DNA of 32,000 nucleotides from Pyrolobus fumarii 1A (lineage in GTDB: Archaea > Thermoproteota > Thermoprotei_A > Sulfolobales > Pyrodictiaceae): NCBI RefSeq assembly GCF_000223395.1, contig NC_015931.1:300001-332000 (forward strand), in the 5' to 3' direction. The position numbers and the translations under genes were made by a program. The number at the start of each line of letters is the position of its first letter. Positions within the stretch are counted from its first letter, which is position 1. The notes beneath the pieces were generated by a model. It was not told the DNA's origin. It searched no databases and saw nothing but the letters and a program-made list of their open reading frames with translations. Positions 4,568-29,479 of this stretch are shown in pieces.

Positions 4568-4583
4568 CCGGGCTGGAGGGGTC

Positions 4584-7573: not shown

Positions 7574-8038
7574 TCACGGTAGTATCTCTGCGTTGCCGGA
7601 TACCGAGACCTGGGTGTTGGTTAGGCTGGTGTACCCTGATACCTCGACAGTCACCTTGTCGCCGACTGTGGCGCCGGTGTAGCAGACGGTGGTGAAGGAT
7701 GCTGAGCTGCCAGCCTTGACGGTCACCGGGGGCAGCGGATCCCATGTGCAGGACACGCTATTCCCGTTGACGTAGAGCTGGAGGTTATTTATGGTAACCG
7801 TCTCAGGGCCATTGTTCTTCACGGTCACCGTGACGGCCGTGTATCCATCACCAGCGTCGTGAGCGTCAACAATAACCGATAGGGTGGCGCCCTTCGAGGC
7901 CAGCGTCCTCGTCTGCGACATTATGATGCCCCCGGCTATCAGGGCAACGGCAACAGCGATGCCGAGGATAACGAGAGCCTGCACGCCTAGGCTCACCGCA
8001 CGGAACCCAGCCACCCTAGCCACGCTACACACCCCCAT
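7574..8038 (-). CDS. archaeal type IV pilin-like protein (class III signal, DUF361-type N-terminus)
   Basis: The N-terminus MGVCSVARVAGFRAVSLGVQALVILGIAVAVALIAGG contains the RAVS + hydrophobic helix motif, followed by a beta-sandwich-like TVTVKNNGPETVTINN segment. It is a paralogue of 10422-10880. An alternative GTG start lies at 8023. The ORF-track start at 8206 runs through the upstream gene's end. Confidence 0.65.
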   Translation of the reverse strand: MGVCSVARVAGFRAVSLGVQALVILGIAVAVALIAGGIIMSQTRTLASKGATLSVIVDAHDAGDGYTAVTVTVKNNGPETVTINNLQLYVNGNSVSCTWDPLPPVTVKAGSSASFTTVCYTGATVGDKVTVEVSGYTSLTNTQVSVSGNAEILP

Positions 8039-9761: not shown

Positions 9762-10417
9762 GAGTAAAGCTACGCTACTCCTGGTGTGGCCGCATTCCAC
9801 CCTGCTTTGGCAGACCCTCGGAGGAGAGGCCGGAGGGACTCGAGGAGTACTTGTATAAGCTGACGGGTAGGCATTGGGGTCTACGCGGCGAGAGAGTATA
9901 TGGCGACCACCGTGAGGCGGCGTGTGACGCCGCGATCCTCTTCCTCACGGGGTACGACGTGTGGCTCGAGCCTCTAGACCCGCCGCCCCGTAGACCCCCG
10001 GAGCTTAGAAGCTGGAGGGACTTGCTCCGCTACACTCCCTGGCTCGATAGGCTCGCCTCCAGGATAGCCTCGAAGAGAGACTTTGACTCTGCGTTTAAGG
10101 CGGCGGTGGAATCCCTCTCCGAGATGTTCGTCGCTAGCCTCGAGCAGGGCGGGAGAATCGACCCAGAGGCGCTCGGCGGCTACCAGGCCCTCGCCGAGGT
10201 ATTCACACATATGCTCGAGTTTAGGCTGATGGGGTTCGAGGAGGGTTTCCGGGAACTCGAGAGGAGGAGGCCGTGGGTCGACGCCGCCTACATAGCCTTC
10301 GCGCCCTGGAGGCTCTTCGCGAGGCACTATACACGCGCCCTAGCCGAGCTGGGCAAGGAGGCGGGGAGAGCAACCCTCGAAAAAATCCGGGGGCTTATCG
10401 CGAGGAGAGGCTCCTAG
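9758..10417 (+). CDS. hypothetical protein
   Basis: This 219-aa ORF is translationally coupled to 8811-9761. It is convergent with the pilin-like gene, with a 4-nt gap. Confidence 0.5.
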   Translation: MRVKLRYSWCGRIPPCFGRPSEERPEGLEEYLYKLTGRHWGLRGERVYGDHREAACDAAILFLTGYDVWLEPLDPPPRRPPELRSWRDLLRYTPWLDRLASRIASKRDFDSAFKAAVESLSEMFVASLEQGGRIDPEALGGYQALAEVFTHMLEFRLMGFEEGFRELERRRPWVDAAYIAFAPWRLFARHYTRALAELGKEAGRATLEKIRGLIARRGS

Positions 10418-10421
10418 CCCA

Positions 10422-10880
10422 TCACCCTATCTGTATTGTTGCGTAGGTTGTCTTGCTGTACTCGTTGCCCTGGGGATCCCTGTAGTAGACTGTGACCCTG
10501 AGCGTCTTGCCCTCTACGAAGCTTGTTGCTCCGAAGTCTCCTGGTTTCAGCGTGAATCCTAGGGTTGTGGTGGCGCCGGCGCTAAGCAGCCTGTTGAGCG
10601 TCACGTTGTAGGTTGCACCCTCGTAGCCGAACTCGACTACAGTTACATTGAGGGGGACGTTACCATCATTCTTTACCATTAGGTTGATGCTGAGCTCCGA
10701 GCCGTCTGGTGGGATAACAGCAGTGACGCCGGAGACCGATAGGGATGCTATGGTCCTGGGCCTCATGAACTGCCCCATGAACATCCAGACCATTAGGCCG
10801 CCCACCACGGCCACCAGGATCAGTATCATCGCCGCGACGACCGGGGAGACCGCCCTAACCCTACCCGCCACCATGGCCAC
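10422..10880 (-). CDS. archaeal type IV pilin-like protein (class III signal, DUF361-type N-terminus)
   Basis: (M)AMVAGRVRAVSPVVAAMILILVAVVGGLMVW matches the RAVSPVIA-type prepilin N-terminus. A beta-rich domain (LMVKNDGNVPLNVTVVEF) follows. The start is GTG 10880 or ATG 10874. Confidence 0.7.
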   Translation of the reverse strand: MAMVAGRVRAVSPVVAAMILILVAVVGGLMVWMFMGQFMRPRTIASLSVSGVTAVIPPDGSELSINLMVKNDGNVPLNVTVVEFGYEGATYNVTLNRLLSAGATTTLGFTLKPGDFGATSFVEGKTLRVTVYYRDPQGNEYSKTTYATIQIG

Positions 10881-12714
10881 TCTCCAGTTTGCTGAAACCA
10901 GACCCCGCAGTGGCCCAGGGACGCGTCTCGAACAACTCCTGCTCTTCCTCTTTTAGCACAACATGAACGGGTAGCCGGAGGCCCTCTGTTAGTATCAGGG
11001 CGTCGCCTACGTCCGCGCTCATTATGAGCTCCTTCTCCTGGTCTGTTAGCCCGAAGAGCTCGGCTGCAGCCTGCGCCGCGTCATAATCGTGGTGGAAGAG
11101 GACCTTGAGGCTGCTGAGCTGCACTGCTATCACCCTGGCCGCCCTGGAGGCCGAGACGTCGCGTGGGTCGTGAGCGATGTGCACGAAGCTCGTGTAGAGC
11201 TTCCTCGAGTCCCGGAACGCCTGGAGCAAAGCCGAGACCACATCGTAGTCGCGGAAGGCCTCGAGCACTTGAACAAACTCGTCAAGCACCACGATCTTCC
11301 TGACGCTCCTAGGCTCCTCGCGTACCCGCTTGAGTATAACCAAAAGTGATAATGCAGCTGCTAGACGCTCTGCCTCGGGGCTACCCATCTCGCGCAACAC
11401 GATAACCACGCGTTTACCCGGCTTGGGTTCTTGACCCGTGAATAGGAAGCCTAGAGGCCCCTCAAGGAGTGCGAGTAGACGTTCTCTTAGCCTCTCAGAC
11501 GCTTTGTTTGCAACCTCCTCTAGACTAGTGCATCTGGATGCTAGTCTTTGAAGCTCGGCTTTCAGGTCAGGCTCTAGGCTAAGCAATGCTGCAATGAATG
11601 TAGCTGCGTGCTCAGGGTGCATTAGGCGGAACGGGTCGAGACCAGCCTTAACGCCACGCTTAAGCTCGAATATGTCAGCGTTCATCGCTTTACCAACCCT
11701 GATGTACTCCCCGGTACGGTCGATGATGTAGACTCTTAGCTCAGGGTCAAGCCGTGAATATCCAAGCGTTATTTTCTTCGCAAACGCTGATTTACCATAG
11801 CCCATCATGCCAAGCACGACAACATTGTAGCTCGTTCGGGCCCAGAGATCCAGGACGACAGGCGTGTCGTCAAGGAGGCTACGGCCCAGATAGATGCCAC
11901 CGGGCTCGACAAGCTGCGTGGTTATGAACGGGTAGAAGGCGGCGAGGGTGACGCTATCGGTGAAGATGGGCTTAGGTTCCTCGCATTCGTACACCTTGTA
12001 ATAATATATTGTGGAGTCCCCGGCTGCGAATCCGAGTGCGTCGAGCTCGCGGATCAGGAGTCTCGCTGCTTCCCTCGCCTCGCTGGGCGTCGACCCGGAG
12101 ACGACGAGCGCTACGCGCACGGCGTGTAGCCTGGCTTCTCGCGCCGCAACCTCCTCCATAAGCTCCGATACCAGCTGCAGCTCCTCGAGCTTCTCTAGCC
12201 TGGGCGCCTTGCCCTCGATCTGCCACGAGGCCACAAGCATCTCTAGGAGCTTCCTCCTTGACCTGAGCAGCCTGAATGCCGCGTGCCTGGAGAGCGGCGT
12301 GACACAGAGCCTAGCCTCCTCGAGGTGAGGGTACAGGTTGTAGAGGAAGCCCTCGGCGAGGACACGAGGCAAGCCATAGACCGTGACGACGCGATAGACC
12401 CTACCCCCGCACACCGCGTAGCTCCTGCGAAGCTCGCAACGCCCCGGGTCGATGAGCGGGGGCGGAGGCTCCAGGAGAGGCTCGTAGCGTAGCCCGGCCC
12501 TCGAGAGGAGAGGGTCAAGCCTCTGCTCGCTGGCAATGTAGAACTCGTAGCCTGGGACCTCCTCACCCTCGATCTTAACGACGACTCTGCGCACGATGAG
12601 CTGCGTCGTCTTCTCCAGCTTGTCGAGGAGAACTCTAAACGAGTCTATGATCGCCTCCTGCTCCTCCTCAGGGAGCAATGGAAACCCGATTGGGTGGATT
12701 TTGTAAGCGTACAC
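10861..12714 (-). CDS. VirB4/HerA-superfamily (CedB/TrbE-like) DNA-transfer ATPase
   Basis: The protein is 617 aa, with Walker A VVVLGMMGYGKSAFAKK and Walker B RKIVVLDEFVQVLE. The domain order is typical of AAA_10/DUF87 conjugation ATPases. It has a GTG start. Confidence 0.7.
   Translation of the reverse strand: MYAYKIHPIGFPLLPEEEQEAIIDSFRVLLDKLEKTTQLIVRRVVVKIEGEEVPGYEFYIASEQRLDPLLSRAGLRYEPLLEPPPPLIDPGRCELRRSYAVCGGRVYRVVTVYGLPRVLAEGFLYNLYPHLEEARLCVTPLSRHAAFRLLRSRRKLLEMLVASWQIEGKAPRLEKLEELQLVSELMEEVAAREARLHAVRVALVVSGSTPSEAREAARLLIRELDALGFAAGDSTIYYYKVYECEEPKPIFTDSVTLAAFYPFITTQLVEPGGIYLGRSLLDDTPVVLDLWARTSYNVVVLGMMGYGKSAFAKKITLGYSRLDPELRVYIIDRTGEYIRVGKAMNADIFELKRGVKAGLDPFRLMHPEHAATFIAALLSLEPDLKAELQRLASRCTSLEEVANKASERLRERLLALLEGPLGFLFTGQEPKPGKRVVIVLREMGSPEAERLAAALSLLVILKRVREEPRSVRKIVVLDEFVQVLEAFRDYDVVSALLQAFRDSRKLYTSFVHIAHDPRDVSASRAARVIAVQLSSLKVLFHHDYDAAQAAAELFGLTDQEKELIMSADVGDALILTEGLRLPVHVVLKEEEQELFETRPWATAGSGFSKLESGHGGG
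10901..10914 (-). promoter_or_regulatory. motif-2 copy (minus strand GCCACTGCGGGGTC) upstream of a pilin-like gene
   Basis: It lies 20 nt upstream of GTG 10880 (26 nt from ATG 10874). It sits inside the last codons of the VirB4-like gene, where it is read as ATAG. Confidence 0.5.
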
Positions 12715-12902
12715 TTGTGGGCCCCAAGTTCATTGCATGTAGAGACTCACTGGGTGCGGGCACGGTTTGGAGTGCTTCGCGATGAACACCAGTCACGTGA
12801 ACATCTCGTGCTGCTCTATGCTCGTGTTTACCCCTCCCGGCCCTCCCGCGTTAAATAATCTTCGATTTCTTTATTAGGATGTGCGGGGGCGCGCGCAGTA
12901 GC

Positions 12903-12944
12903 TCTGCATGCACGGTTCCAACCGCGGTTGGAACCAGTGCAGAG
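12903..12944. repeat. extended inverted repeat centred on a perfect 22-bp palindrome GGTTCCAACCGCGGTTGGAACC (12914-12935)
   Basis: The outer arms are CTCTGCA (12903-12909) and TGCAGAG (12938-12944). It lies in the 266-nt gap between the TFB-like stop (12981) and the VirB4-like start (12714). An A/T-rich box TTAAATAATCTTCGATTTCTTTATTAGG lies nearby, at about 12851-12878. Confidence 0.85.
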
Positions 12945-12980
12945 AGGAGCATCGGCTGGCACATGTGAGGCTGGGCGGGA

Positions 12981-13973
12981 CTAGTCGTGGGAGTAATTGG
13001 CTAGGAGTGTGATCAGCCGAAGTATTATCAGATCGAGTTGTTGCGTCAGGTTACGGGAGAGGCTCCTGACATAGATGTTGATGGTCTTCGGGTAGACAAG
13101 GGCTGTGAACTCGTCACGTGTATCCATCACTTTGAGCCTGTCTCCCTGGTTGAGGATCACTAGCCTCTCGTGGAGGCCCTCGGGCACCCCGTGTATCTCT
13201 ATGCGGAAGGGGAGGTGTAGAACCGACGTTGCAACCATGGGTTTGGGCTCTGTTATCTCGACCCCGAGCTTCGACGCCACGTGGCGTAATGCACGCTCAG
13301 CCTCCTCGAGATTGCCTAGGCGTGCTGGTGCCTCGAGCTTACCCCTCGTGACCTGAACCTTGACGCCACGAGTCTCGACGATTACCTGTTTCACCGCGCC
13401 TCTCCTCACGCGAGACGCTAGGATGATCGCCGCCCGGTAGACGTCGATGGGTTGCAGGGGCTTAGCAGCCAGCCGGACGAGCGTGCTGGAGACAGCCTCG
13501 CGCCAGGCCTCGAGGAGGCTCCTGGCGGTTCTCACCGCTCTACGAGGCGCACCCAGCCTATCGCCATACACGGCCTCCTGGAGAGCGTCTAGAGCCGTGT
13601 TCGGGTTCAGCTTGTAGACCCGGCGTAGCACCCGATACGCGCCGAGGCAACGCACGCCGCAAATGTCGATCGCCCTGGACTCGCCTACGCGAAGCCACCC
13701 GCCGATCTCCTCGCGAATCTGCTTCAGGTCTTCATCGGTCTCTGGTAGCCCTCCCCGGGCCGCGATATCCTCGAGTCTCTCGCGTCTCGTCGGCTCCCTG
13801 GGCCTCTCCACCGGCGTGTAGTGATCCCTTGCTAGGAGCTCCTCGGTGTCATAGGCCCTGTACTCCGGGTGAAGATCGACAGGCGAGTCGTCTATGACAA
13901 CGCCGGTCTCCGGGTCGATTATTGCGCCGCTATGTGGATCCACTATCCAACCGCGGTTGGATACTCTGGTCAC
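12981..13973 (-). CDS. divergent TFB (TFIIB)-like protein lacking Zn-ribbon cysteines
   Basis: The N-terminus WIVDPHSGAIIDPETGVVIDDSPVDLHPEYRAYDTEE parallels the archaeal TFB ribbon/B-reader segment (..D...GE..C...G.V.....ID.GPEWRAF), with the Cys residues replaced. The length of 330 aa is TFB-like, and PIDVYRAAIILASRV is a possible cyclin-like helix. An 18-bp palindrome lies in codons 4-10. Confidence 0.45.
   Translation of the reverse strand: MTRVSNRGWIVDPHSGAIIDPETGVVIDDSPVDLHPEYRAYDTEELLARDHYTPVERPREPTRRERLEDIAARGGLPETDEDLKQIREEIGGWLRVGESRAIDICGVRCLGAYRVLRRVYKLNPNTALDALQEAVYGDRLGAPRRAVRTARSLLEAWREAVSSTLVRLAAKPLQPIDVYRAAIILASRVRRGAVKQVIVETRGVKVQVTRGKLEAPARLGNLEEAERALRHVASKLGVEITEPKPMVATSVLHLPFRIEIHGVPEGLHERLVILNQGDRLKVMDTRDEFTALVYPKTINIYVRSLSRNLTQQLDLIILRLITLLANYSHD
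13945..13962. repeat. perfect 18-bp palindrome ATCCAACCGCGGTTGGAT at the 5' end of the TFB-like gene
   Basis: It lies 12-29 nt downstream of the ATG at 13973 and is read as SNRGW. Confidence 0.85.
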
Positions 13974-14021
13974 GGGCGTGGACCCTAGAGGGTCGCGTAT
14001 AGCCCGTAGCTCCTGTTAACA

Positions 14022-14636
14022 CTACCGCTTGTCACCCTCTTTCAACTCCACCAGCACCCTCCTCTCGTAGAGCACCACGCCATCCGGCCCAACGATACGA
14101 ATGACATGGTGCCCGGGCTTCAGGTAGAGCAGCGCCGAGAAGCGGCCAGACCCGTCGGTACGAGCCTCAGCCACCCTCCTACCGTCAACCTCGGCAACAA
14201 CCTGGGCACCCACGAGGGGCGAGCCATCCGGGGCCACCGCGACGCCCTCAAGCCTCACAGGCTCCCCCACCGCCACAACAACCCTCGCCACCCCGCGATC
14301 CGCGCCGCGCCTCTCGCGGGCAGCGCGGGACTTGGCTGGTGGGCGTTTACCAACCGCGGTTGAGCGAAATGCAGCAAGGAGCTTCTCCTCGGGGCACCAC
14401 GCGGTGCAGCCCGGTGCGAGCGCCGTGACGGTGAGGCCGATGACGCTGGAGGCTATCAGGGCGGGGAACCAGTCGAGGCCGTTCTGGAGCGCCACGAGGA
14501 GAGCAACTAGGGCGGCAGGCGCCCCGTAGAAGAGGAGGCGGCGTGGCTCGACGTCACCGATGAAGGGTAGTGTTATGATCGGCTCCTCGAGCCACCTGCG
14601 CTCACGGAACCAGAGTGTTCTTATGATGCGTGCCAT
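14022..14636 (-). CDS. membrane protein with a C-terminal carboxypeptidase-regulatory-like beta-sandwich
   Basis: Two central TM helices are present. The C-terminal GVAVAPDGSPLVGAQVVAEVDGRRVAEARTDGSGRFSALLYLKPGHHVIRIV resembles a CarboxypepD_reg fold. It overlaps the upstream gene by 16 nt. Confidence 0.45.
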   Translation of the reverse strand: MARIIRTLWFRERRWLEEPIITLPFIGDVEPRRLLFYGAPAALVALLVALQNGLDWFPALIASSVIGLTVTALAPGCTAWCPEEKLLAAFRSTAVGKRPPAKSRAARERRGADRGVARVVVAVGEPVRLEGVAVAPDGSPLVGAQVVAEVDGRRVAEARTDGSGRFSALLYLKPGHHVIRIVGPDGVVLYERRVLVELKEGDKR

Positions 14637-15079
14637 GCTAGGAGCGACACCCCGACTATGAAGGCTGCGGCGCCCAGTGTTGTGAGGATAGTGTTCGCCG
14701 TTGGGTCGTCGTAGTGGATTGGGCCGCGTAGCCTCCTTCTCGAGAGCGGCCAGAGGGGCCAGACGCCCGCGGGTGTCAGGGCGTCGAGGGCTAGGTGGGT
14801 GGCGGTCCCCGCCGCTGCGAGCGGGTAGGCTAGTGGCGTGACCAGCCTCCAGGCCGCGTTAAGAACAGCTGTTATCAGGGCGGGGAGGAGCAAGCAGGCG
14901 AACAGGTTGTGGGTCCAGGGTGCGCGCCGACGCCCAACATGCCCCAACGCATCTATGAACTCGTCCGCGGCGAGAGCCGCCAAGAGAGCCACGCCGAAAT
15001 CGGCGAAATGCGCGTGGAGCAGCCCGGCGAGGAGCGCAACAACACCCGCCGCGATGCTTAAGTGCGTCTTCCTCCTCAA
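14621..15079 (-). CDS. DUF457 (YdjM/YbcI-like) membrane-bound metal-dependent hydrolase family protein
   Basis: MRRKTHLSIAAG at the N-terminus and THLALDALTPAGVWPLWPLS match the recalled DUF457 pattern (H..lD.lT..Gv.l..P). Confidence 0.55.
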   Translation of the reverse strand: MRRKTHLSIAAGVVALLAGLLHAHFADFGVALLAALAADEFIDALGHVGRRRAPWTHNLFACLLLPALITAVLNAAWRLVTPLAYPLAAAGTATHLALDALTPAGVWPLWPLSRRRLRGPIHYDDPTANTILTTLGAAAFIVGVSLLAWHAS

Positions 15080-15324
15080 CGCGTCGCCACCATCGCAACC
15101 CCAATCAGCACGAGCACGAGAGCCCAGAGCGCTACGAGGCTGGATGTCACAACCCTGTCTATATCCTCGCGTCTAACGAGCCTGGCCCCCATGTAGAAGA
15201 TTGTGGCTAGGAGGAGCGCGTAGAGGAAGGGGGCTAGGGTCTCGAGGCCGAGTGGCTTCAGAGCGATTGAAAAGACTCGAGCGGGCCACGAAAGGGCCTC
15301 CGCTACTCGCGCTGCACCCAGCAT
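15076..15324 (-). CDS. small membrane protein
   Basis: It is 82 aa with two or three hydrophobic helices. It overlaps the downstream gene by 4 nt, indicating operon context. Confidence 0.45.
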   Translation of the reverse strand: MLGAARVAEALSWPARVFSIALKPLGLETLAPFLYALLLATIFYMGARLVRREDIDRVVTSSLVALWALVLVLIGVAMVATR

Positions 15325-15342
15325 CTAGGCGTCCCCCGGGTG

Positions 15343-17856
15343 TTAGCCTTGCGAGGCTGCAGTGATTGCAAACATCTTGTGTATGTAAGCTCGTACCAGC
15401 GGATCTGCATAGGCTAGCATGGCGGCGAGTATCAATGCGACTATTGTTAGTCTCAGTGTAGCCTTGAGGGAGCCGTCTATCGCCTTGCTGCCCACCGTGG
15501 CCATCGCTGCGCTAGCCTCGACTACCATGAGCCTGGTTGCCTCGACGCTAGCCGGGTTGAGGACGAAGAGGGTTGGCGTGGCTACGCCCGCGCCCGAGAC
15601 CTGACTAGTTATCCTCTGGAGCTGGACTGTGAACACCTCGGCGATCCCCGCGCTCATGGAGGCGAAGGAGGCTAGCATCACGGGAGCCGCGTACATCAGC
15701 GCCTCGTAGAGCCTCAGCTGGCTCTTCATCTCGCGGTAGGCGAGATAGTAGTCCTGGAGGAACCTGTGGAGAGTCTCCAGGACCCGTGGAGTACCGCCAC
15801 CCGTCGCCTCTATCTCGGCGACGGTGAAGAGAACTATCCTGGCGACCCTCGAGGGGGTCCAGAGCCTCAGCACCGCCTCGTCGAGCGGTACGTCGAGCCT
15901 CAGCATGGCCGCGAGCTTCTCAATTAGCGCGTTGAAGTGCTGGTTGTAGGGCTTCCTCTCGGCGAGGTCTAGGATGGCACTCGAGGGTGGTAGCCCGATC
16001 TTACGGTACTCGAGCAGGTCGCGGACGAAGAGGGGGAGAGCCGCCTCGTGGGCCCTGGCGATGCGCACCTGGAGCAGCCACTGGGCGCCGTAGCCGAGCC
16101 CCAGCGCCGCTATCACGGCTGTGAGGGCTGCCCAGGAGTACCCGTAGCTGAGCACACCCCACGCCGCCGCGACAGCCACGGCAACGGCGGGTATACCGTG
16201 GGCTATCGCCACCTCGGGAACCGTGAAACCCAGTTGCATTGACTGCACGATGCCGACGAAGACCGCAGCCATGAGGGGGATCCCCAGGTAGGTGAACACT
16301 TGGAGAAACGCAGCCTGCTCCACAGCGCCGCCGACAATCGCGAAAATGGAGGTTAGGAGGACAAAGGCAATCACCATCACCTCGCCGAGAGTCACCACCC
16401 TCTCGGCGAACTGACGGAGACGGAAACGGAGCCACTCGAGCTGCTCCCTAACCCTATCCTCCAGGTAGCCTAGGAGGTCCCCGCCTGTGACAACGAGGCT
16501 GGTGTACCCACGGAGCAGGTCGGCGAAGCTCCTGGAGGGGTGCGTATCCGCCAGCCTCTCCATAGCAGTGATCCAGTCGACGCCCTCCACCATCACAGTG
16601 CGCTCTAGGAGCCTAGCCTCCCTCTCCATAGCGGGGAGGATGGAGCCCCGGAGCCTCCTGAAAGCCTCGAAGAGGGAGACACCAGCAGCCTGAAGGCTGG
16701 CGGCGAGAAGCACGAACCATGGTAGCTCGTCCTCGACGCGTCTTCTCCTCTCACCCGCCTTGCTAGGTAGCTCTAGCCACGGGGAGGCTAGCGTGGAACA
16801 TGCCGCGAGGAGGGCTGCTCCAACCGCGGTTGCACCGAGTGTCGGCGAGAGTAGGGCGAGTGGCAGGAGGGAGGGGGTGGCCGCGAGCGTTAGAAGTGCT
16901 GCCGTGAGCCTCTTCGAGGCGTAGACTACCGGGTCTTCGAAGACAGCTGCGCGCTGCAGCATCGGCTTGATCCTCTCGGCGTAGGCCTCGAGGAGCTGCG
17001 CGAGCCTCTCGTGCTTGATTAGGAGCGCCACGTACCACCTCGAGTAGTGGGGTCTTATCGCGAGCCTCGGAGCCACCACCACAATCCTATAGATGCTCGT
17101 CGAGAGGCCCGCGAGGCCGTAGACTATCACGATGTAGCCGCTGGCGAGGCTGAGAGAATCCGGAGCCGCCACCAGCAGCGTATAGCCAGCGATAGTGTCT
17201 AGCGCGAACAGCACACCCTCCACGAGCTCAGCGCGGATGAAGGGCGCTTGGCCTCGAGGCGGGTGGATGATGACCCTACTGGGCTTCAGTTTCAGGCCAC
17301 GGACTGCGGCCAGCAGGGAGCCCGTCAAGGCTGGTATCAGGGCGGCTGCAAGGAACGGCCTACCGGGAAGGGCCGAGACAACGGCGAGAGCAGAGTAGGC
17401 GACGGCGGCGAACCTCCACTCGCCCGGCAGCAGCCTCACCGCGTAGTACGTCGAGACCAGGAGGAGCGGGGCGGATGCGAGCGCGAGCATGCTAGCGGGG
17501 CTTGCGGCCGCCACCAATGTTAGTGCGAGCGACTCGAGCAGCAAGAGCACTGAGTACCTTGGCTTGGGTCTCACTAAGCGGGTGGCCAGGTACGCCACGC
17601 TAGACGAGAGGAGGGGTGCGGCGAGCACCAGCGCTGGCAGCGGGCCTAGCAGAGCAACCGCGGTTGGAACTGATGCGGCGAACAACAGCGTTGACAGCCA
17701 ATGGGGGGTGGTGATCCCGAGTAGGACGCCCGCCAGGAGGCCGGACGCCAGCGCCACTATAGTATAATAGATATCTATCCCGTGATGGAGAGTCGGTAGC
17801 GACGCGAGCCACGCGATCACAGTGACCGCGGTTAGAGCGGCCCTCCTCGCATTCAC
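15343..17856 (-). CDS. TadC/FlaJ/PilC-type pilus platform protein (two T2SSF repeats) with a long polytopic N-terminal extension
   Basis: Two T2SSF-like repeats are present: ELPWFVLLAASLQAAGVSLFEAFRRL...GGDLLGYLEDRV and ALPLFVRDLLEYRKIGLPPSSAILDL...TGGGTPRVLETL. The protein is 837 aa, with roughly the first 380 aa being extra TM helices. It lies immediately downstream of the T2SSE ATPase. Confidence 0.75.
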   Translation of the reverse strand: MNARRAALTAVTVIAWLASLPTLHHGIDIYYTIVALASGLLAGVLLGITTPHWLSTLLFAASVPTAVALLGPLPALVLAAPLLSSSVAYLATRLVRPKPRYSVLLLLESLALTLVAAASPASMLALASAPLLLVSTYYAVRLLPGEWRFAAVAYSALAVVSALPGRPFLAAALIPALTGSLLAAVRGLKLKPSRVIIHPPRGQAPFIRAELVEGVLFALDTIAGYTLLVAAPDSLSLASGYIVIVYGLAGLSTSIYRIVVVAPRLAIRPHYSRWYVALLIKHERLAQLLEAYAERIKPMLQRAAVFEDPVVYASKRLTAALLTLAATPSLLPLALLSPTLGATAVGAALLAACSTLASPWLELPSKAGERRRRVEDELPWFVLLAASLQAAGVSLFEAFRRLRGSILPAMEREARLLERTVMVEGVDWITAMERLADTHPSRSFADLLRGYTSLVVTGGDLLGYLEDRVREQLEWLRFRLRQFAERVVTLGEVMVIAFVLLTSIFAIVGGAVEQAAFLQVFTYLGIPLMAAVFVGIVQSMQLGFTVPEVAIAHGIPAVAVAVAAAWGVLSYGYSWAALTAVIAALGLGYGAQWLLQVRIARAHEAALPLFVRDLLEYRKIGLPPSSAILDLAERKPYNQHFNALIEKLAAMLRLDVPLDEAVLRLWTPSRVARIVLFTVAEIEATGGGTPRVLETLHRFLQDYYLAYREMKSQLRLYEALMYAAPVMLASFASMSAGIAEVFTVQLQRITSQVSGAGVATPTLFVLNPASVEATRLMVVEASAAMATVGSKAIDGSLKATLRLTIVALILAAMLAYADPLVRAYIHKMFAITAASQG

Positions 17857-17880
17857 TCTAGATCCCGGGTTGTAACGAGG

Positions 17881-19515
17881 CTAGGCTGCAGTGCGGCGCC
17901 TCTGCATGTGGAACGCCTTAAGGTGCCGATAGAACTCTTTCCAGTTGTAGATCCTCTTCTCGGTTAGCCTCTCTAGGAGCTCGGCTCGGGCCGCCAGCTC
18001 CTCGACGAGGCGCCCCCGGTCCCAGCCCAGGGCCTCTGCCTTGACCTGAAGCCTCACGGATCTCCTCGCAACCTCCTCGGGGCTGCTTGGCTCGAAGGTG
18101 TCGCGGCGCGGGTCCCACCTGAACACCTGAGTGTACTCTATCTCGTCTTGGACTCCGGGTGCGCGCACCAGGATCCTCGGGTGGCCCTGCCTAGGCTCAG
18201 GGAGGATCTCGTAGACGGCCTTCACCCTGCGGACGGTTCTACCCTCGACGACGGTCCTCGTCATGAAGACGATGGTGTTGAGGACGCGGATGAATGAGGG
18301 GCCTACGCTGAGCGGCGGCGATACGAGCCTCGTCACCATCTCGTGTAGAGAGCCAGCATGGAAAGTGCCACCTCCCCCGTGACCCGTCGCAAGAGCCTGG
18401 ATGAGCACCGAGGCCTCCTCGCCTCTAACCTCGCCGACGACGATCACTTGCGCCCTCCTCCTAAGCGCGAACTTGACGAGGTCAAACAGCGTCACGTCTC
18501 TGGCGGTTCCCGCGAAGAAGGATCTCCTGGTGTATAGCGGGTCCCAGCCGGGATGCGGCAACCGGAGCTCAGGGACGTCCTCGACTGTCACTATCCTCCA
18601 GTCGGGTGGTGCCATGGAGAGCGTCGCGTTGAGCATGGTTGTCTTCCCCGAGGCCATCTCGCCGACGAAGAAGACGTTGCCGTAGAGCTCCAGGAGGAGC
18701 ATGAGGTACGCCGCGAGCAGCGGAGAGAGGGTACCTAGCTCCACCAGCTTAGGCACCGAGTAGGGGACCTCCGGGAACTTGCGGAGCACAAACCCGGGAC
18801 CAACACCGTGGATGTCGCCAAGGTTCAGAGCTATCCTGTGACGCTCTGGTGTACGCGCCTCGAGGAGAGGATTAGCCGTCGAGATGTACTGGCCAGCCTT
18901 CTGGGCCAACCGCTGCACATACCGGGCCATCTCAGCCTCCCGGGGCATCACGATGTTAGTCTCGATCCACGTGACCCACCCTACGTCACGGTGCACGACC
19001 TGCACGGGTCTACCCGGAAGTCCCGCAACCTCCTCGACGTTAGGGTCGCGCACCAACACATCGATAGGACCCCAACCGGCTACATCGCGAGTTACATAGT
19101 ACTGCAATGCCCTCAGGTCGTCCCCGCTCATCACGTCGGCTAGACCAAGCTCCTCGACAGCCTCGATCACAACGGCCTTCAGGTACTCCTCGTGATTGAT
19201 GCCGTCGGAGGGCGGCCTAGCGGTGAACGCAATATGGTCCATGACGAGAGGGTAGTAGCGTCTGACTGACTCGCTAACCGGTGGCTCGTGAACCAGATAC
19301 ATGACTTCATTCTCGAACTCGACAAGGTAGACCGTAGCCAGGTTGTCGACACCAGCACGGTATGATCTCAGAACCCTAGCCCTACCCGGCAATACTACAG
19401 CATCGGCTTGTGCGCTGACCAGGCGGTAGCCAGTCGCGATCCTCCGGCGTCGACGTCCGGGGACAAATGCATCGAGTAGTGCTTTTCTCAAGCCATTTAG
19501 GTCTAAGCCTTTCAC
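17881..19515 (-). CDS. GspE/FlaI/TadA-family (T2SSE) secretion/pilus assembly ATPase
   Basis: It has Walker A GEMASGKTT, Walker B VIVVGEVRGEE and His box TGHGGGGTFHAGS. The GTG start overlaps the upstream stop (GTGA). Confidence 0.85.
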   Translation of the reverse strand: MKGLDLNGLRKALLDAFVPGRRRRRIATGYRLVSAQADAVVLPGRARVLRSYRAGVDNLATVYLVEFENEVMYLVHEPPVSESVRRYYPLVMDHIAFTARPPSDGINHEEYLKAVVIEAVEELGLADVMSGDDLRALQYYVTRDVAGWGPIDVLVRDPNVEEVAGLPGRPVQVVHRDVGWVTWIETNIVMPREAEMARYVQRLAQKAGQYISTANPLLEARTPERHRIALNLGDIHGVGPGFVLRKFPEVPYSVPKLVELGTLSPLLAAYLMLLLELYGNVFFVGEMASGKTTMLNATLSMAPPDWRIVTVEDVPELRLPHPGWDPLYTRRSFFAGTARDVTLFDLVKFALRRRAQVIVVGEVRGEEASVLIQALATGHGGGGTFHAGSLHEMVTRLVSPPLSVGPSFIRVLNTIVFMTRTVVEGRTVRRVKAVYEILPEPRQGHPRILVRAPGVQDEIEYTQVFRWDPRRDTFEPSSPEEVARRSVRLQVKAEALGWDRGRLVEELAARAELLERLTEKRIYNWKEFYRHLKAFHMQRRRTAA

Positions 19516-19763
19516 GCCGTCACCCAGTGGTAGGGTTGTGCGTGTGCAGTGACTGCGGATGTTCTGGTCTTCTCACTCTCCAGGTTTTCGAGTAGTAGTG
19601 CAACAGCCGAGCCTACGAGCAGACCAAGTGCGCCGCCAAGCGCTGCACCAGTTACACGGCCTAGTGCATAACCCAGAGTTATGCCTGCAAGTGTCGTAGC
19701 AGCTATCATTGCTAGCTTCGGGTCGCTTGTCCTAAGGTATAGTTCATATAACATGTTCATCAT
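19512..19763 (-). CDS. small Gly-rich 2-TM membrane protein (CedA2/VirB2-like candidate)
   Basis: The sequence begins MMNMLYELYLRTSDPKLAMIAATTLAGITLGYALGRVTGAALGGALGLLVGSAVALLL. The ATG at 19763 was chosen because the ORF-track extension overlaps the upstream gene. A hairpin abuts the start. Confidence 0.5.
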   Translation of the reverse strand: MMNMLYELYLRTSDPKLAMIAATTLAGITLGYALGRVTGAALGGALGLLVGSAVALLLENLESEKTRTSAVTAHAQPYHWVTA

Positions 19764-19783
19764 CCCCCGAAAGTATTCGGGGG
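19764..19783 (-). other. perfect stem-loop CCCCCGAA-AGTA-TTCGGGGG abutting the start codon
   Basis: An 8-bp G/C-rich stem with a 4-nt loop fills most of the 29-nt gap between the stop at 19793-19795 and the ATG at 19763. Confidence 0.7.
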
Positions 19784-19792
19784 CGTAATACG

Positions 19793-20968
19793 TTAATATT
19801 CCTGCTGCTGGTGTGTGAAAGCGTGCCAAGGTATCCCTAGGGTCTCGTCGACGACCCGCTTGTAGTATCTCCTTGTTTGAAGTTTCCACAACGTATGTTT
19901 GTAAGCATGTTGTAGAATGTAACCTAGGCCGCCTAGCGGGTATGTTGGCTCTCTTATCGCATGTATCAGACCCCGGGTGAACCCGACTATCCTCGAGGCT
20001 ATTCCGCCTGTGGGTGTCGTGACCGGCCATGGTAGTGGGCTTCGGACGAGTTCTGGGGCTGCTGCCAGGTGTGGCACGATCTGTCTGATTGTCTTTGCCG
20101 CTGCGGGGCCAGCCACATAGCCTAGGAACATGCTTGTCAGGGCCATTGTCGTGGAGGCTCTAGGAGCTAGGATGCTGGCGATGACTGGGGCGAAGAAGCT
20201 GGCTGCTATCATCATGAGTGTGAGGCCGGCCTCGTAGACGCCGCTGGGGTCCCAGTGGGTTATGAGTTCGGACCCCAGCCTGTACACCGCAGATGCCAAC
20301 AGAGGCACGAAGAGCAGGCCGGTGAGGGTTGACACCGCCCCATGGGCCACGTCCCGCACGTACCTGGCGGGAGCGAGCGTCAGGGCTAACCATAGTGGGA
20401 GTGTCGCTGCTAACACCGCTGTAAGCATCAAGCGGAGCGCGTTGAACATCCCGAGGAAGATCATGATGGAGAAGAAGGCTGTGAGGACTGCTGGAGCCCC
20501 GAGCAGCGTCGCACCGCCTATGACTGCCGCCGCGCCCTCGGTGACCTTCGCGAGGTAGACGTCCTCGGGGTTGCCCGAGAAGAGGGTGTAGGACCCCCAC
20601 GCGACGAGAGCAGCCGCCCCGTCGTAGACGTGCTTCGAGAGGAGGATGGCTAAGAGGACTAGGAGCGAGCGTTTCAACACAGTGCCCAGCTCCACCCTAT
20701 CCTCATAGAGGTATTCCAGAAGCGCGAGGAGGGTCATGAAGGTGTAGGCCAGGATGCCTAGCAGCAGGGAGGTGTCGTACACCGCGTTCATGGCGGGCGC
20801 GAGGTCGTGGAAGACGCGGGGCGCGTCGCGAGTATAGACGTCGAAACCGGGGACGGCAAGGCTAAGCTCGATGACAGGCTTCACGGTAAACTCGGCGATG
20901 AAACGCGCGACAGGATCGATAAGCGTCTTGAAAAGCTCGTTAAGCGCGTCGAATATCGGGTTTCCCAT
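19793..20968 (-). CDS. polytopic membrane protein, VirB6/TrbL/CedA-like candidate
   Basis: It is 391 aa with many TM helices, flanked on both sides by small 2-TM genes as in cedA1-cedA-cedA2. The assignment rests on architecture and context, not on a recognised motif. Confidence 0.5.
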   Translation of the reverse strand: MGNPIFDALNELFKTLIDPVARFIAEFTVKPVIELSLAVPGFDVYTRDAPRVFHDLAPAMNAVYDTSLLLGILAYTFMTLLALLEYLYEDRVELGTVLKRSLLVLLAILLSKHVYDGAAALVAWGSYTLFSGNPEDVYLAKVTEGAAAVIGGATLLGAPAVLTAFFSIMIFLGMFNALRLMLTAVLAATLPLWLALTLAPARYVRDVAHGAVSTLTGLLFVPLLASAVYRLGSELITHWDPSGVYEAGLTLMMIAASFFAPVIASILAPRASTTMALTSMFLGYVAGPAAAKTIRQIVPHLAAAPELVRSPLPWPVTTPTGGIASRIVGFTRGLIHAIREPTYPLGGLGYILQHAYKHTLWKLQTRRYYKRVVDETLGIPWHAFTHQQQEY

Positions 20969-20987
20969 AGCCCGTACACCTCTACCC

Positions 20988-21275
20988 TCACTCGGCGGTG
21001 ACTAGGCGCAGCACATTCACCGCGATGACCATCCCCGCTATCGCCGAGACTATCCACTGGACCCAGCGGAGCAGAGTCACCATCATGTCGCCGAGCGTCC
21101 TCCCGCTCGGCAGCTGTACCTTCGCAACGTCGGGCTGCTGGCTGTAGATGCCCCAGCCTAGGAAGCTCCTCGCGAAGAAGTCGATTGCATAGGGGAGGAT
21201 CCACACGAGGATCAACACAAAAACAGCGACCATCAACTGCTTCTTGGCTCGTGCAGCCTCGAACGGGTCCGGCAC
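20988..21275 (-). CDS. small 2-TM protein (VirB2/CedA1-like pilin candidate)
   Basis: Two hydrophobic helices are present (LMVAVFVLILVWILPYAIDFF and MMVTLLRWVQWIVSAIAGMVIAV). GTG 21275 was chosen because motif-2 lies 27 nt upstream of it. The alternatives are ATG 21377, which adds a 34-aa hydrophilic leader and overlaps the upstream gene, or ATG 21233. Confidence 0.4.
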   Translation of the reverse strand: MPDPFEAARAKKQLMVAVFVLILVWILPYAIDFFARSFLGWGIYSQQPDVAKVQLPSGRTLGDMMVTLLRWVQWIVSAIAGMVIAVNVLRLVTAE

Positions 21276-21302
21276 GGATCCCGCACCCAGGAGTGTGGCG
21301 GG

Positions 21303-21316
21303 GACCCCGCAGTGGC
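21303..21316 (-). promoter_or_regulatory. motif-2 copy (minus strand GCCACTGCGGGGTC)
   Basis: The exact 12-mer core lies 27 nt upstream of the GTG at 21275. Confidence 0.45.
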
Positions 21317-21357
21317 GTGAGGCGGTTGTCGAGAGGTGTTCAGGGTGGTGGCATGTG

Positions 21358-21795
21358 TTAACCGCGGTTGCCGGCAACGCTGGCGACCTTGCACCTCATT
21401 TCTCCCACAACCCCTCCCAAGATCATGGCAGACGTGGAAAGCGCGGCGCTTACGGGGTCTACCGCGGGTCTAACACCGAACAAGCTCAGGGTGAGCGTGG
21501 CTAACACGACAACCGTGAAGTACGGCACAGCTATGGAGATGGCCCCTCGAAGACCGTGTCTAAACCCCTCCGTGAATGACTCCACCAGACCCACGAGCAC
21601 CAGGGTCACGCTAAACGCGGCGAGTAGAGGTACGTTTATCAGAGGCTGGGCGTTGACACCTAGCGTGCGAAGCCAGGCCATAAAAGCCGTCTCAGCTGCG
21701 TGTATCGCCCTGAGGCCCATCTGTAAAAAGCTGTGCAAGACATCCTCGAGGGCCATCTCGACTATAATGAAGGGATTGTGAGACATGCGCACCAC
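21358..21795 (-). CDS. membrane protein (3-4 TM), first gene of the Ced-like block
   Basis: It is 145 aa with several hydrophobic segments. The start is GTG 21795 or ATG 21786. The stop codon lies inside the palindrome ttAACCGCGGTTGc (21358-21371). Confidence 0.5.
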   Translation of the reverse strand: MVRMSHNPFIIVEMALEDVLHSFLQMGLRAIHAAETAFMAWLRTLGVNAQPLINVPLLAAFSVTLVLVGLVESFTEGFRHGLRGAISIAVPYFTVVVLATLTLSLFGVRPAVDPVSAALSTSAMILGGVVGEMRCKVASVAGNRG

Positions 21796-21968: not shown

Positions 21969-22493
21969 TCAGCAGCTCCTCAGCTGGGCTAGTACCGCAG
22001 CGGCGCGTAGGAGGTCGGAGCGCGTGAGGCCTAGCGCCTTTGCCCTCTCGTCAACCTCCTCGTCGAGCTCCGCCGGGAGCTTTACAGACCTGATGGTGGG
22101 CGCCTTGCAGCGTAGAGCCTCCATGCTCAGCTTGTTCACCGTATCGGCGTCCATCTCGAGCACCTTGCGTAGGGCCTCTCGTAGAGGCCCGGACCCGGGG
22201 AAGATGCACGTCTTGAACGTGGTCACTACGCTCCTGGCTCTACGCTCCACCCCCGCTCCCGCCGCCGGGGGTACCAGCTTGACGCGCGAGCCGCGGGAGC
22301 AGAGATAGGCGAGCATCCTGTGACACTCGTCGCTGAAACGCGACGAGTGTACAAGCGCGCCGGCCACACCCCGGAGGGGGCGGCCACAGCAAGGACACGC
22401 GTTGAACACGTGCACCTTCTTGACGTGCCTCTTGAGGCTGGATAGTTGCTTGTAGCTGCGCCCGCAGAACGGACACACGTACAACCCTACCAC
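21969..22493 (-). CDS. C2H2 zinc-finger / ribbon-helix-helix (CopG-like) fusion DNA-binding protein
   Basis: The N-terminal YVCPFCGRSYKQLSSLKRHVKKVH is a classic C2H2 finger, and CPCCG...H follows. The C-terminal RSVKLPAELDEEVDERAKALGLTRSDLLRAAAVLA is RHH-like. Confidence 0.6.
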   Translation of the reverse strand: MVGLYVCPFCGRSYKQLSSLKRHVKKVHVFNACPCCGRPLRGVAGALVHSSRFSDECHRMLAYLCSRGSRVKLVPPAAGAGVERRARSVVTTFKTCIFPGSGPLREALRKVLEMDADTVNKLSMEALRCKAPTIRSVKLPAELDEEVDERAKALGLTRSDLLRAAAVLAQLRSC

Positions 22494-22768
22494 CCCGCTA
22501 TCGCCGCGAGCCTCTCAAGCCTCCTGAGGAGGAGCCCACCGAGCCTCTCCCCGCGCAGCCTCACGACGCCACCCCTCTCCTCCAGCAGCCCGGCCGCAGC
22601 GAGAACCTCGATCTCCTCCCGCACGCCGCGCCCACCACCAGCGATTATGACATTGCGCTTCTCCCTGACGCGCCTCACAGCAGCCTCGATATCCTCCACC
22701 CTAGCCTCGCCACCGTTAGCCGCCAGGTAGCCCAGGAGAAAGTCACGGAGGAACACCACCCTCCTCAC
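22487..22768 (-). CDS. small winged-helix-like DNA-binding protein (tentative)
   Basis: It is 93 aa. FLLGYLAANGGEARVEDIEAAV...LAAAGLLEERGGVVRL resembles a wHTH layout. It overlaps both neighbouring genes. Confidence 0.4.
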   Translation of the reverse strand: MRRVVFLRDFLLGYLAANGGEARVEDIEAAVRRVREKRNVIIAGGGRGVREEIEVLAAAGLLEERGGVVRLRGERLGGLLLRRLERLAAIAGW

Positions 22769-23124
22769 CGCCCACCACCCCCAGCCTCGAGATACTCGCC
22801 GCAGAGACGAGCACGGGCAGCATCGCCGCTAGAGAGCACCGGGACGCCGTCACGCTCCACGATGATCTTGACCCTCCTCGCCTTCGACGCCAGCTCCTCG
22901 AGGAGATCCAGCCACTCGTCCTCATCCATAGGCACGCCAGGGGCGGCCACCGGAGGCTCAACCTCGAAGACCAGGCCCTCCCCATCCGCCAGCTCCTTCA
23001 CCATCCTACCCGTGATCATCGAGAGCTGGTGGACGAGGAAGCCAAGCTCCTGGTACGTCTCCGGGGTCACTGGCAGATCCCAGACGAGGCGAACCCGGTA
23101 CCCCGACACCCCACGCCACCCCAC
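22765..23124 (-). CDS. hypothetical protein
   Basis: This 119-aa ORF is first in the minus-strand regulator operon and faces a divergent promoter region. Confidence 0.45.
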   Translation of the reverse strand: MGWRGVSGYRVRLVWDLPVTPETYQELGFLVHQLSMITGRMVKELADGEGLVFEVEPPVAAPGVPMDEDEWLDLLEELASKARRVKIIVERDGVPVLSSGDAARARLCGEYLEAGGGGR

Positions 23125-26712: not shown

Positions 26713-26777
26713 AACCACCCCCGCTTCCACTGGAGCACCTGGAGAACCCCCTACTCCTCTCTACTATCCTAACTACT

Positions 26778-27222
26778 CCAACCGCGGTCGAATCCCCCGC
26801 TTAACCGCGGTTAAACCCCGGTTCCAACCGCGGTTGGAAACAAACTCCCCCACATCAAGAGCCCCGAGCACAACAAGACACCCAAGACACTCTTACCCAC
26901 GAGTACCTCCCCACGCACCGGGGTCTGGTTTAACCGCGGTTAGACTCGGGTTCCAACCGCGGTTGGGGTGGACCGAAAGTACCGGACACCCCTCCGGACA
27001 GGAAGATATTCTAGAACAACCATGACACGCTATCTTGTTATATACCATTTTACGGGCTAAACTCGGGCTGAAGAGAAGCTAAACTCGCGGGGATCATCAC
27101 GCGGTGCATAGAGACTTAGGTTTCAACCGCGGTTGGAACCCGGGATTCGGGCCCGGGAAGCGACCAGGGAGGCGCAAACAAGTAGTTGTGGTAGTCGAGG
27201 GGTTCGCCCCAACCGCGGTTGG
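26778..27222. repeat. cluster B of AACCGCGGTT palindromes (7 copies) in a 570-nt non-coding hub with an A/T-rich core
   Basis: 14-mers start at 26778 (core 1 mismatch), 26801 (TTAACCGCGGTTAA), 26824 (TTCCAACCGCGGTTGGAA), 26930, 26953, 27123 and 27209. Three spacings are 23 nt. The 37-nt composite unit 26801-26837 is repeated at 26930-26966 (34/37 identical). The A/T-rich stretch at about 27001-27060 has 22/60 G+C by hand count. Confidence 0.85.
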
Positions 27223-27282
27223 ATGCGGGCGGGGCTAGGCGAGACACTGCTCTAGTCAACATCCCTTTGAGCAGCCCTGGGT

Positions 27283-29391: not shown

Positions 29392-29479
29392 TGGCGCCGG
29401 GGGCGGGATTTGAACCCGCGCGGGGTTGCCCCCACCGGCTTAGCAGGCCGGCGCCCTAGCCAGGCTAGGCGACCCCGGC
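29392..29479 (-). tRNA. tRNA-Ser (anticodon GCU), CCA encoded
   Basis: The minus strand reads GCCGGGG-TC-GCC..GGC-G-CCGGC-CTGCTAA-GCCGG-TGGGGGCAACCCCGC(long variable arm)-GCGGG-TTCAAAT-CCCGC-CCCCGGC-G-CCA. All stems pair, and the length is 88 nt. Confidence 0.9.

Follow-up and report, generated by a model that had tools for sequence, protein, structure and literature searches.

The chromosome of the archaeon Pyrolobus fumarii 1A carries, within positions 300,001 to 332,000 of contig NC_015931.1 (this whole stretch of 32,000 nucleotides is called the window), a long run of minus-strand genes in which the motor of a type IV pilus lies among relatives of type IV secretion system (T4SS) components. 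The region is treated here as a putative conjugative element. An earlier sequence-only reading had described the run as a contiguous array of twelve genes between 10422 and 21795, numbered here g1 to g12 in the order of transcription, and all twelve open reading frames (ORFs) were confirmed where it had placed them. The transmembrane (TM) topologies it gave agree with predicted TM segments, and the motifs by which it had recognized two ATPases were all found in the translations: GEMASGKTT, VIVVGEVRG, and TGHGGGGTFHA in the T2SSE protein, and GMMGYGKS and VVLDEF in a 617-amino-acid (aa) ATPase. The profile hidden Markov model check that it proposed returned T2SSE at 94.8 bits, T2SSF (in g6) at 32.8 bits, and DUF87 at 30.9 bits, with AAA_10 and P-loop_TraG from Pfam matching the 617-aa ATPase besides DUF87. 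The run is co-directional, as described, but its extent had been drawn too short: three more overlapping genes continue it upstream (23124-21969), and pilin-like genes at 8038-7574 and 3404-1155 continue it downstream.

The 617-aa protein (g11, 10861..12714, minus strand) is a VirB4-family conjugal-transfer ATPase. It is 100% identical to the NCBI entry ‘VirB4 family type IV secretion system protein [Pyrolobus fumarii]’, and in NCBIfam it matches VirB4_plasma (70.5 bits), CD1110 (66.3 bits), TIGR00929 (52.1 bits), and TraC (51.4 bits), compared with 18.4 bits for CedB (NF041017, E 6.6e-4, cut-off 700) and 16.5 bits for HerA; all of these scores lie under the equivalog cut-offs. Searches of the PDB with the family profile (A5) agree, giving E 1e-9 for the VirB4 C-terminal domain 4AG5 and E >0.1 for HerA-type chains. 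Identification as CedB or HerA was rejected on the strength of this difference between 51–70 bits and 18.4 or 16.5 bits. The earlier description of a ‘VirB4/HerA-type ATPase’ mirroring CedB of the crenarchaeal DNA-import (Ced) system is thus right about the VirB4 family, but the ancestry in Ced is not borne out. In the plasmid database PLSDB, it best matches the VirB4/TrbE-like proteins that Sulfolobus conjugative plasmids and the Thermococcus plasmid pT33-3 encode. Similarity to the pKEF9 protein runs end to end (25% identity, residues 4-599 against 19-618, E 2e-41), and that to the pT33-3 protein covers 585 residues (24% identity, E 4e-34). Mutations in the VirB4-like and VirD4-like genes of pT33-3 are reported to abolish its conjugation (PMC12857230, a 2025 review).

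A partner for this ATPase is encoded just beyond the window. Contig L008, which comes from the same organism, shares with the window the latter's first 5084 nucleotides and extends 5.7 kb leftward, and it carries on the strand of the array a gene for a 1073-aa, FtsK/HerA/TraG-like coupling ATPase of VirD4/TraG type (window -811..-4032, equivalent to L008 5896-9117), 11.7 kb downstream of the VirB4 gene. The sequence-only reading had reported no VirD4-type coupling protein, which is true inside the window; the gene was missed because the window edge excludes it. The protein has DUF87 and FtsK_SpoIIIE domains and weak NCBIfam matches to TraD and CedD. It resembles the 1044-aa TraG-like protein of pKEF9 (E 9e-14), including its C-terminal region, and it matches the VirD4-type proteins encoded directly after VirB4 in ∼33 distantly related loci with E values from 1e-13 to 1e-34, nearly all of them ≤1e-27. 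In one of those loci, L023, the VirD4-type protein carries the Pfam domains TrwB_AAD_bind and TraG-D_C. Paired VirB4-like and VirD4/TraG-like ATPases are expected of an archaeal conjugative element, and the P. fumarii locus encodes both.

The candidate for a translocation channel is the 391-aa polytopic protein g3 (Pyrfu_0351, 19793..20968, minus strand), which has at least six TM segments. Its family is very small, with 12 matches among 1.8 billion representative proteins, and it was accepted as VirB6/TrbL-like on transitive evidence. Alignment by hhalign of the g3 family (A4) with 33 polytopic proteins whose genes lie upstream of VirB4-VirD4 pairs gave a probability of 94.8% and E 1.2e-8 over 393 columns, with 92.3% over the TrbL region in local mode; the controls gave 1.2% for a reversed template and 0.1% for an unrelated polytopic family. 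The template-family member in L023 combines Pfam matches to T4SS_pilin (40.4 bits) and TrbL on one polytopic protein. Direct searches were negative: the A4 profile has no match among PDB sequences, none of 13 members scanned individually against Pfam hits a relevant family, the hhalign probability against the single R388 TrwI sequence is 0.2%, and tblastn of g3 against PLSDB returned nothing. Precomputed PF19590 TrbL_3 labels on three g3 orthologues could not be recovered with hmmscan, even at E 10, and were not used, and an AlphaFold2 (AF2) model built from a 4-sequence alignment was unusable (predicted local distance difference test, pLDDT, 41).

Two small proteins with two TM segments flank g3. 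The first, g2 (20988..21275, minus strand), is a 95-aa helical hairpin and an unproven candidate for a VirB2-type (T4SS) pilin. Its similarity to PF18895 T4SS_pilin is weak but recurrent (E 0.008, with E 1.8e-4 for the orthologue in L003 and a faint match in L014). Structure prediction, part of a comparison that the sequence-only reading had suggested, gave an AF2 model that is a hairpin (pLDDT 79), but Foldseek of this model against the PDB gave 19 matches, all with E >3. Family-level hhalign probabilities are 1.6% against T4SS_pilin and 0.6% (family A2) against R388 TrwL. The second, g4 (19512..19754, minus strand), is an 80-aa glycine-zipper protein specific to P. fumarii with only weak glycine-zipper matches, and the relatives L003, L005, and L014 have no counterpart between the polytopic gene and T2SSE. 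Neither g2 nor g4 finds a pilin chain in the PDB at E≤10; the A. pernix CedA1 pilus structure should be among the PDB entries. The three genes had been likened to a cedA1-cedA-cedA2 trio. This analogy fails because g4 has no counterpart in the relatives; in addition, g2 is only marginally like T4SS pilins, and g3 relates to TrbL-like proteins.

Between these genes and the VirB4 gene lies the pilus motor. The 544-aa ATPase g5 (17881..19515, minus strand) scores 299.5 bits with FlaI, 245.6 bits with BasE, 151 bits with TadA, and 84 bits with VirB11 in NCBIfam, and in the PDB it matches the archaeal GspE 2oap at 229 bits, FlaI at 200 bits, and VirB11 at 59 bits. These scores identify it as an assembly ATPase of archaeal type IV pili, of FlaI/BasE type. 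An assignment as VirB11 was considered and rejected, both on these scores and since a gene for an UpsF-like platform adjoins. This is g6 (15343..17856, minus strand), an 837-aa pilus platform protein of UpsF/BasF/TadC type (UpsF 219.8 bits, BasF 156 bits in NCBIfam) with an additional N-terminal polytopic region and 39-42% identity to its orthologues in relatives. The array ends, as first described, with g12 (10422..10871, minus strand), a 149-aa archaeal type IV pilin with the class III signal RVRA|VSPVVAAMILI and similarity to UpsA (33.8 bits, E 3e-8, NCBIfam), whose gene overlaps the VirB4 stop codon. Further downstream on the same strand, a second pilin-like gene (7574..8038) encodes the N-terminus FRA|VSLGVQALVILGIAV along with CARDB/DUF4352 matches, and its homologues lie downstream of VirB4 in L007, L012, and L017. 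A 749-aa protein (1155..3404, minus strand) with the pilin-type N-terminus LRG|QTVLPAVVALMAII and a weak CarboxypepD_reg match may be a large minor pilin or an adhesin. The locus thus encodes a complete set for assembly of an archaeal type IV pilus: a FlaI-type ATPase, an UpsF-type platform, and at least two to three pilins with class III signals. No Peptidase_A24 match was detected among the window ORFs, and the prepilin peptidase is presumably supplied by the host. The claim that a PilB/PilC-type pilus machine is interleaved with a VirB-like set holds: the motor genes, VirB4, and the VirB6/TrbL-like gene are truly intermixed, and this architecture is kept in relatives.

Conservation of the arrangement was examined by the synteny comparison that had been proposed as a check. 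The interleaved module is syntenic in ∼10 Desulfurococcales-type metagenomic contigs, in the recurring order (VirB2-like)-VirB6-like-FlaI-like-UpsF-like-YdjM-Ig-domain protein-TFB-like-VirB4-pilin. Identity of their VirB4 proteins to that of P. fumarii is 52-53% in L003-L007 and L011, 47-49% in L016-L018, and 37% in L012; L014 is a further relative with a syntenic module. YdjM has no match in L012 or L014, and the TFB-like gene has none in L012. The adjacency of VirB4 and pilin is invariant in the relatives, with a g12-type pilin gene directly after VirB4 in L003, L004, L007, L012, and L014. Since contigs that are independent of one another, with VirB4 proteins only 37-53% identical, share this gene order, the arrangement is not due to chance. 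Homologues of the module are very few in 5.8 billion proteins. A scan of species-representative genomes with two short peptide patterns matched two contigs of metagenome-assembled genomes (MAGs) and failed to return P. fumarii itself, even though the pattern is present in the window; the P. fumarii region is probably masked in that collection, and the scan counts are lower bounds.

A metagenome scan with the VirB4 alignment found ∼55 more distant loci, in which a small T4SS_pilin-like protein, a ∼500-aa polytopic protein, VirB4, and a VirD4-type protein follow one another. No T2SSE or T2SSF gene lies within 10 kb of these distant VirB4-VirD4 loci, and Sulfolobus and Thermococcus plasmids (including pKEF9 and pT33-3) do not figure in the top 40 PLSDB matches to T2SSE. 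From this it follows that insertion of the pilus motor into a T4SS operon is a derived trait of a small clade, the named members of which are Desulfurococcales MAGs. As a separate observation on the distant loci, ∼33 of them (L019-L067; for example, L023 7236-8759) encode a VirB6/TrbL-like protein whose N-terminus holds a T4SS_pilin domain (40 bits), and a second, small gene for T4SS_pilin alone stands before it, an arrangement that echoes the reported homology between the N-terminus of CedA and CedA1. L023 also carries a bacterial N_methyl pilin and a reverse transcriptase, and the distant loci are for this reason probably bacterial (of monoderm or candidate phyla radiation type).

The surroundings of the array have features of mobile DNA. 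A tRNA-Ser(GCT) gene (29392..29479, minus strand) marks the right edge of an orphan-rich region and is its probable integration target, with the housekeeping genes Thi4 and PdxS following. ORFs around the module are mostly orphans. Toxin-antitoxin genes, which are typical mobile-element cargo, occupy 3873-4985 of the window: a PIN protein (44 bits) is paired there with one that is AF2212-like (52.7 bits), and a TumE toxin (89.7 bits) is encoded as well. Directly before the module in L003 stands a Phage_integrase gene (64.7 bits), a homologue of which was not found among the window or L008 ORFs. A provirus was considered as well and rejected, with no capsid or terminase match in PHROGs or Pfam.

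Among the putative regulatory features of the region is g10 (12981..13973, minus strand), a 330-aa candidate for an element-specific transcription factor. The sequence-only reading had called it TFB-like, and this is correct for an N-terminal segment: residues 6-49 match residues 21-64 of the TFIIB model PRK00423 (E 4.7e-5, NCBIfam), and PDB entry 1pft is matched at E 0.01. The zinc-ribbon cysteines are absent, however, as D and T stand in their positions and there is no first CxxC, and a family profile search detected no cyclin domain. An HPEYRxY motif is kept in four g10 orthologues, and a 274-aa gene upstream of the module in L014, which is more distantly related, gives a TFIIB zinc-ribbon match. 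Divergent TFIIB genes have been reported as a hallmark of thaumarchaeal integrative-conjugative elements (ICEs) and also of numerous pilus loci in archaea (PMC6563490, PMC4858521). The three genes upstream of g1 (21969..23124, minus strand) overlap by 4 and 7 nucleotides and encode proteins of 119 aa, 93 aa, and 174 aa, the last with C2H2 zinc-finger and ribbon-helix-helix (RHH) domains (zf-C2H2 27.3 bits, RHH_1 30.5 bits). A weak match to MobA-like RHH proteins was also seen, and the three are candidate element regulators.

A repeated palindrome, AACCGCGGTT, occurs in 21 exact copies between window positions 17 and 28533, compared with 0.02 expected, and its extended consensus of 16 bp is TCCAACCGCGGTTGGA. 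Further left, copies lie at 5805 and 8793 of L008. Twelve sites fall within the ∼8% of the island that is non-coding, and palindromes stand 20-240 nucleotides upstream of the starts of the 749-aa pilin-like gene (four copies, 3492-3826), VirB4, g2, and the coupling ATPase; they likewise precede genes starting at 24163, 26023, and 28478. None was found in the 3.4 kb past 28533 or in related elements of other organisms. The palindrome may be an element-specific operator, or it may be a motif found genome-wide in P. fumarii. Six exact copies and one degenerate copy (26778..27226) form an array in a 570-nucleotide non-coding region (26713-27282), where they surround an AT-rich stretch (∼27000-27070); this region is a candidate replication origin, origin of transfer (oriT), partition site, or operator array of the element.

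Junctions between the genes bear on how they might be expressed. The sequence-only reading had noted many overlaps of 4-16 nucleotides, and these are real, yet they occur at only 4 of the 11 junctions (g4/g5 and g7/g8, 4 nucleotides each; g8/g9, 16; g11/g12, 11). The remainder comprise six gaps of 18-82 nucleotides and one of 266 nucleotides (12715..12980) upstream of the VirB4 gene, which contains a TATA-like AT-rich box and an 18-bp palindrome, TTCCAACCGCGGTTGGAA, and is a probable internal promoter/operator. With this box and palindrome inside the gap, one transcript for the whole array is unlikely; the array is co-directional and compact but probably gives rise to more than one transcript.

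Taken together, these features incline us, with reasonable though far from complete confidence, to regard the array as the mating/DNA-transfer module of an integrated conjugative element (or plasmid) of more than 35 kb that adjoins tRNA-Ser. The strict coupling of the VirB4 and pilin genes suggests that the pilus and T4SS halves form one apparatus rather than two neighbours. We infer a division of labour in which the pilus set, processed by a host prepilin peptidase, would build an adhesive or aggregating filament joining donor and recipient, analogous to the role of Ups pili for Ced and, in bacteria, of the type IV pili of R64 and PAPI-1 for transfer (PMC9905601, PMC11868833, PMC12857230). 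Element DNA would then be taken by the coupling ATPase, which would hand it to a VirB6-like membrane channel energised by VirB4, while g2 may serve as a VirB2-like subunit. Expression might be coordinated by the TFIIB-like protein, the zinc-finger/RHH protein, and the palindrome upstream of several genes. Self-transfer of a mobile element is leaned towards over import of DNA. A more radical version, which we regard as doubtful, is a chimeric apparatus of pilus plus VirB4, VirB6-like, and VirD4 proteins in which the FlaI/UpsF filament, and not a VirB2-type pilus, is the mating structure or even the DNA conduit; it is pointed to because the VirB4-pilin coupling is invariant. If true, this would be a route of archaeal conjugation at ∼100 °C and above that is mechanistically unlike both the bacterial T4SS and Ced.

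Several observations weigh against a conjugative element. The searches for mobility genes covered 37.7 kb (the window plus the L008 extension), with the left end of the island lying beyond, and in this sequence no integrase, relaxase, or replication gene was found; nor was a repeat of tRNA-Ser of at least 12 nucleotides, as expected of an attachment (att) site, between window -5737 and 29330. As no integrase and no att repeat were found, neither integration nor mobility is demonstrated, and the element may be a defective one. Which way the DNA moves is not readable from the sequence, and the families that the pilus parts match best are those of Ups components, whose role in Sulfolobales is in the exchange of chromosomal DNA. 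Assignment of g2 as VirB2-like is unproven, given the Foldseek and hhalign results. Finally, the argument from a sporadic distribution is weak, as the genome scan relied on its two patterns and missed P. fumarii.

The Ups similarity raises the possibility of a domesticated chromosomal system, in effect Ups plus Ced or Ted at a single locus, serving repair by the import or exchange of host DNA. UpsF and UpsA are the top-scoring models for the platform and the pilin, which fits such a system, as does the failure to find an integrase, relaxase, or att repeat in the 37.7 kb; T4SS-derived archaeal chromosomal systems exist in the form of Ced and Ted (PMC9905601), and Ted works with a true VirB4. 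On the other hand, CedB is matched at only 18 bits, the small proteins have no PDB pilin match, and canonical CedA1 is already reported from every member of the Pyrodictiaceae that has genome data (PMC12518558). Moreover, the module is rare and patchy, it is linked to an integrase in L003, and its flanks hold toxin-antitoxin and orphan genes, with a tRNA gene adjoining. A VirD4/TraG-type coupling ATPase is present, as in conjugative plasmids, while the Ted-type neighbours ParA/VirC1, HerA, and Rad50 were not seen among the window ORFs. Domestication is therefore judged unlikely.

The same lack of an integrase or att site in the 37.7 kb would be expected of a decayed remnant of a conjugative element, in which transfer has been lost and the pilus is at most co-opted by the host for adhesion. 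Plus-strand orphans inserted at 8811-10417, which have no counterpart in relatives, and the 11.7 kb of unrelated genes between VirB4 and the coupling ATPase are in keeping with decay, but the twelve core ORFs are intact and full length compared with their orthologues, the ATPase motifs are preserved, and the palindrome network is perfectly conserved in its 21 exact copies, so that we give decay only a small share of the probability. Smaller still is the chance of a pilus or secretion system that moves no DNA, with VirB4 and the polytopic protein serving the filament or protein export. There are at least three pilin-like substrates, including the 749-aa protein with its pilin N-terminus, Ig-like surface domains are present, and bacterial T4SSs lacking a DNA-transfer function are known (PMC12857230); against these stand the coupling ATPase of DNA-pump type, the mobile-element context, and the fact that the closest characterized VirB4 relatives sit on conjugative plasmids.

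A comparable inventory has been described for thaumarchaeal ICEs, which encode VirB4, VirD4, VirB6, TadC, FlaI, pilins, and TFIIB without a relaxase (PMC6563490, PMC5797428). By description, elements such as NCAV2-E1/E2 and NitEve-E6 (Abby 2018, Krupovic 2019) resemble the P. fumarii locus in this inventory, in their CopG/RHH proteins and lack of a relaxase, and in integration at tRNA genes, which for P. fumarii is probable. The host here is from another phylum (Thermoproteota, Pyrodictiaceae), however, and prepilin peptidase, PilT, VirB3, and ParB were not seen at its locus. Furthermore, whereas the genes of the thaumarchaeal ICEs are reported to be non-syntenic, the P. fumarii genes form a tight syntenic array with the motor between the VirB6-like gene and VirB4 and with a pilin coupled to VirB4. 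Sulfolobus plasmids of the pKEF9/pNOB8/pING family and Thermococcus pT33-3 share a VirB4 that is homologous over its full length and likewise have no relaxase, and the ∼1000-aa TraG-like ATPase of pKEF9 is homologous to the P. fumarii coupling ATPase. These plasmids are episomal, unlike the chromosomal P. fumarii element, and no T2SSE or T2SSF match was found in the half of pKEF9 that was examined.

Ced with Ups in Sulfolobales, and Ted in Thermoproteales, also combine T4SS-derived VirB4-, VirB6-, and VirB2-like parts with a cell-aggregating type IV pilus, which is a likeness to the P. fumarii locus. No CedA1 or CedA similarity was detected there, although g3 was not compared directly with CedA, and while Ced and Ups are conserved host genes at separate loci, the P. 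fumarii locus is patchy and set in a mobile-element context. By the sequences of its CedB-like and CedA1-like candidates, the locus does not belong to the Ced systems; a Ced system exists elsewhere, to judge from CedA1 orthologues reported for every Pyrodictiaceae member with genome data (PMC12518558). It is set apart from Ted by the described neighbours of the latter, as the ParA, HerA-helicase, and Rad50 families were not found among the window ORFs. In bacteria, the IncI R64 thin pilus and the Pseudomonas PAPI-1 island encode a type IV pilus together with VirB4 and VirD4 that is needed for, or enhances, mating (PMC12857230). This likeness is functional only, since the P. fumarii pilus parts are archaeal (FlaI/UpsF type) and no outer-membrane complex is present.

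A literature search found no paper describing this Pyrolobus element. The mix of pilus motor and VirB4 has already been reported in other archaea, but no report of it was found for this lineage, and because the parts list matches that of the thaumarchaeal ICEs the locus extends a known inventory and founds nothing new in concept. As far as the searched literature goes, it would be the first candidate conjugative element in Pyrodictiaceae, a family that grows above 100 °C and for which there are no genetic tools. The mechanism of archaeal conjugation is largely obscure, with no relaxase identified and a link to function made for VirB4 and VirD4 alone, in pT33-3. In this respect, the compact, conserved module provides a defined parts list for asking if a type IV pilus is integral to archaeal conjugation.

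The remaining genes of the array encode further membrane proteins. The first, g1 (21358..21786, minus strand), is a 142-aa protein with TM segments that has no Pfam family and no BLAST counterpart in related loci. Three genes between the platform and the TFIIB-like gene (g7-g9, 14022..15324, minus strand) encode conserved accessory components: g7 is an 82-aa protein with two TM segments, g8 (14621-15079) is a YdjM/DUF1286 membrane protein (YdjM 55.3 bits), and g9 has two TM segments and a CarboxypepD_reg Ig-like domain (27.6 bits). YdjM/DUF1286 proteins are a family of putative membrane-bound hydrolases. Orthologues of g7-g9 are present in L003-L007, L012, and L014, save for the YdjM gene in the last two; L011 also has YdjM. 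The plus-strand ORFs at 8811-10417 (316 and 219 aa) split the minus-strand array after the VirB4-pilin pair and before the next conserved pilin gene; they are orphans, absent from the loci of relatives, and look like a secondary insertion. To the right of the array, a 305-aa ORF (24163-25080) carries a DSGGFQ motif, which we take to be a signature of tRNA-guanine transglycosylase (TGT), with no support for a DpdA/TGT-like enzyme from Pfam, NCBIfam, or PDB searches. The next ORF (in the region 24163-26026) encodes 373 aa with similarity to DUF5591/ArcS (27 bits) and to phrog_34505 (E 1.5e-10), and the two may form a pair for nucleic-acid modification of the 7-deazaguanine type.

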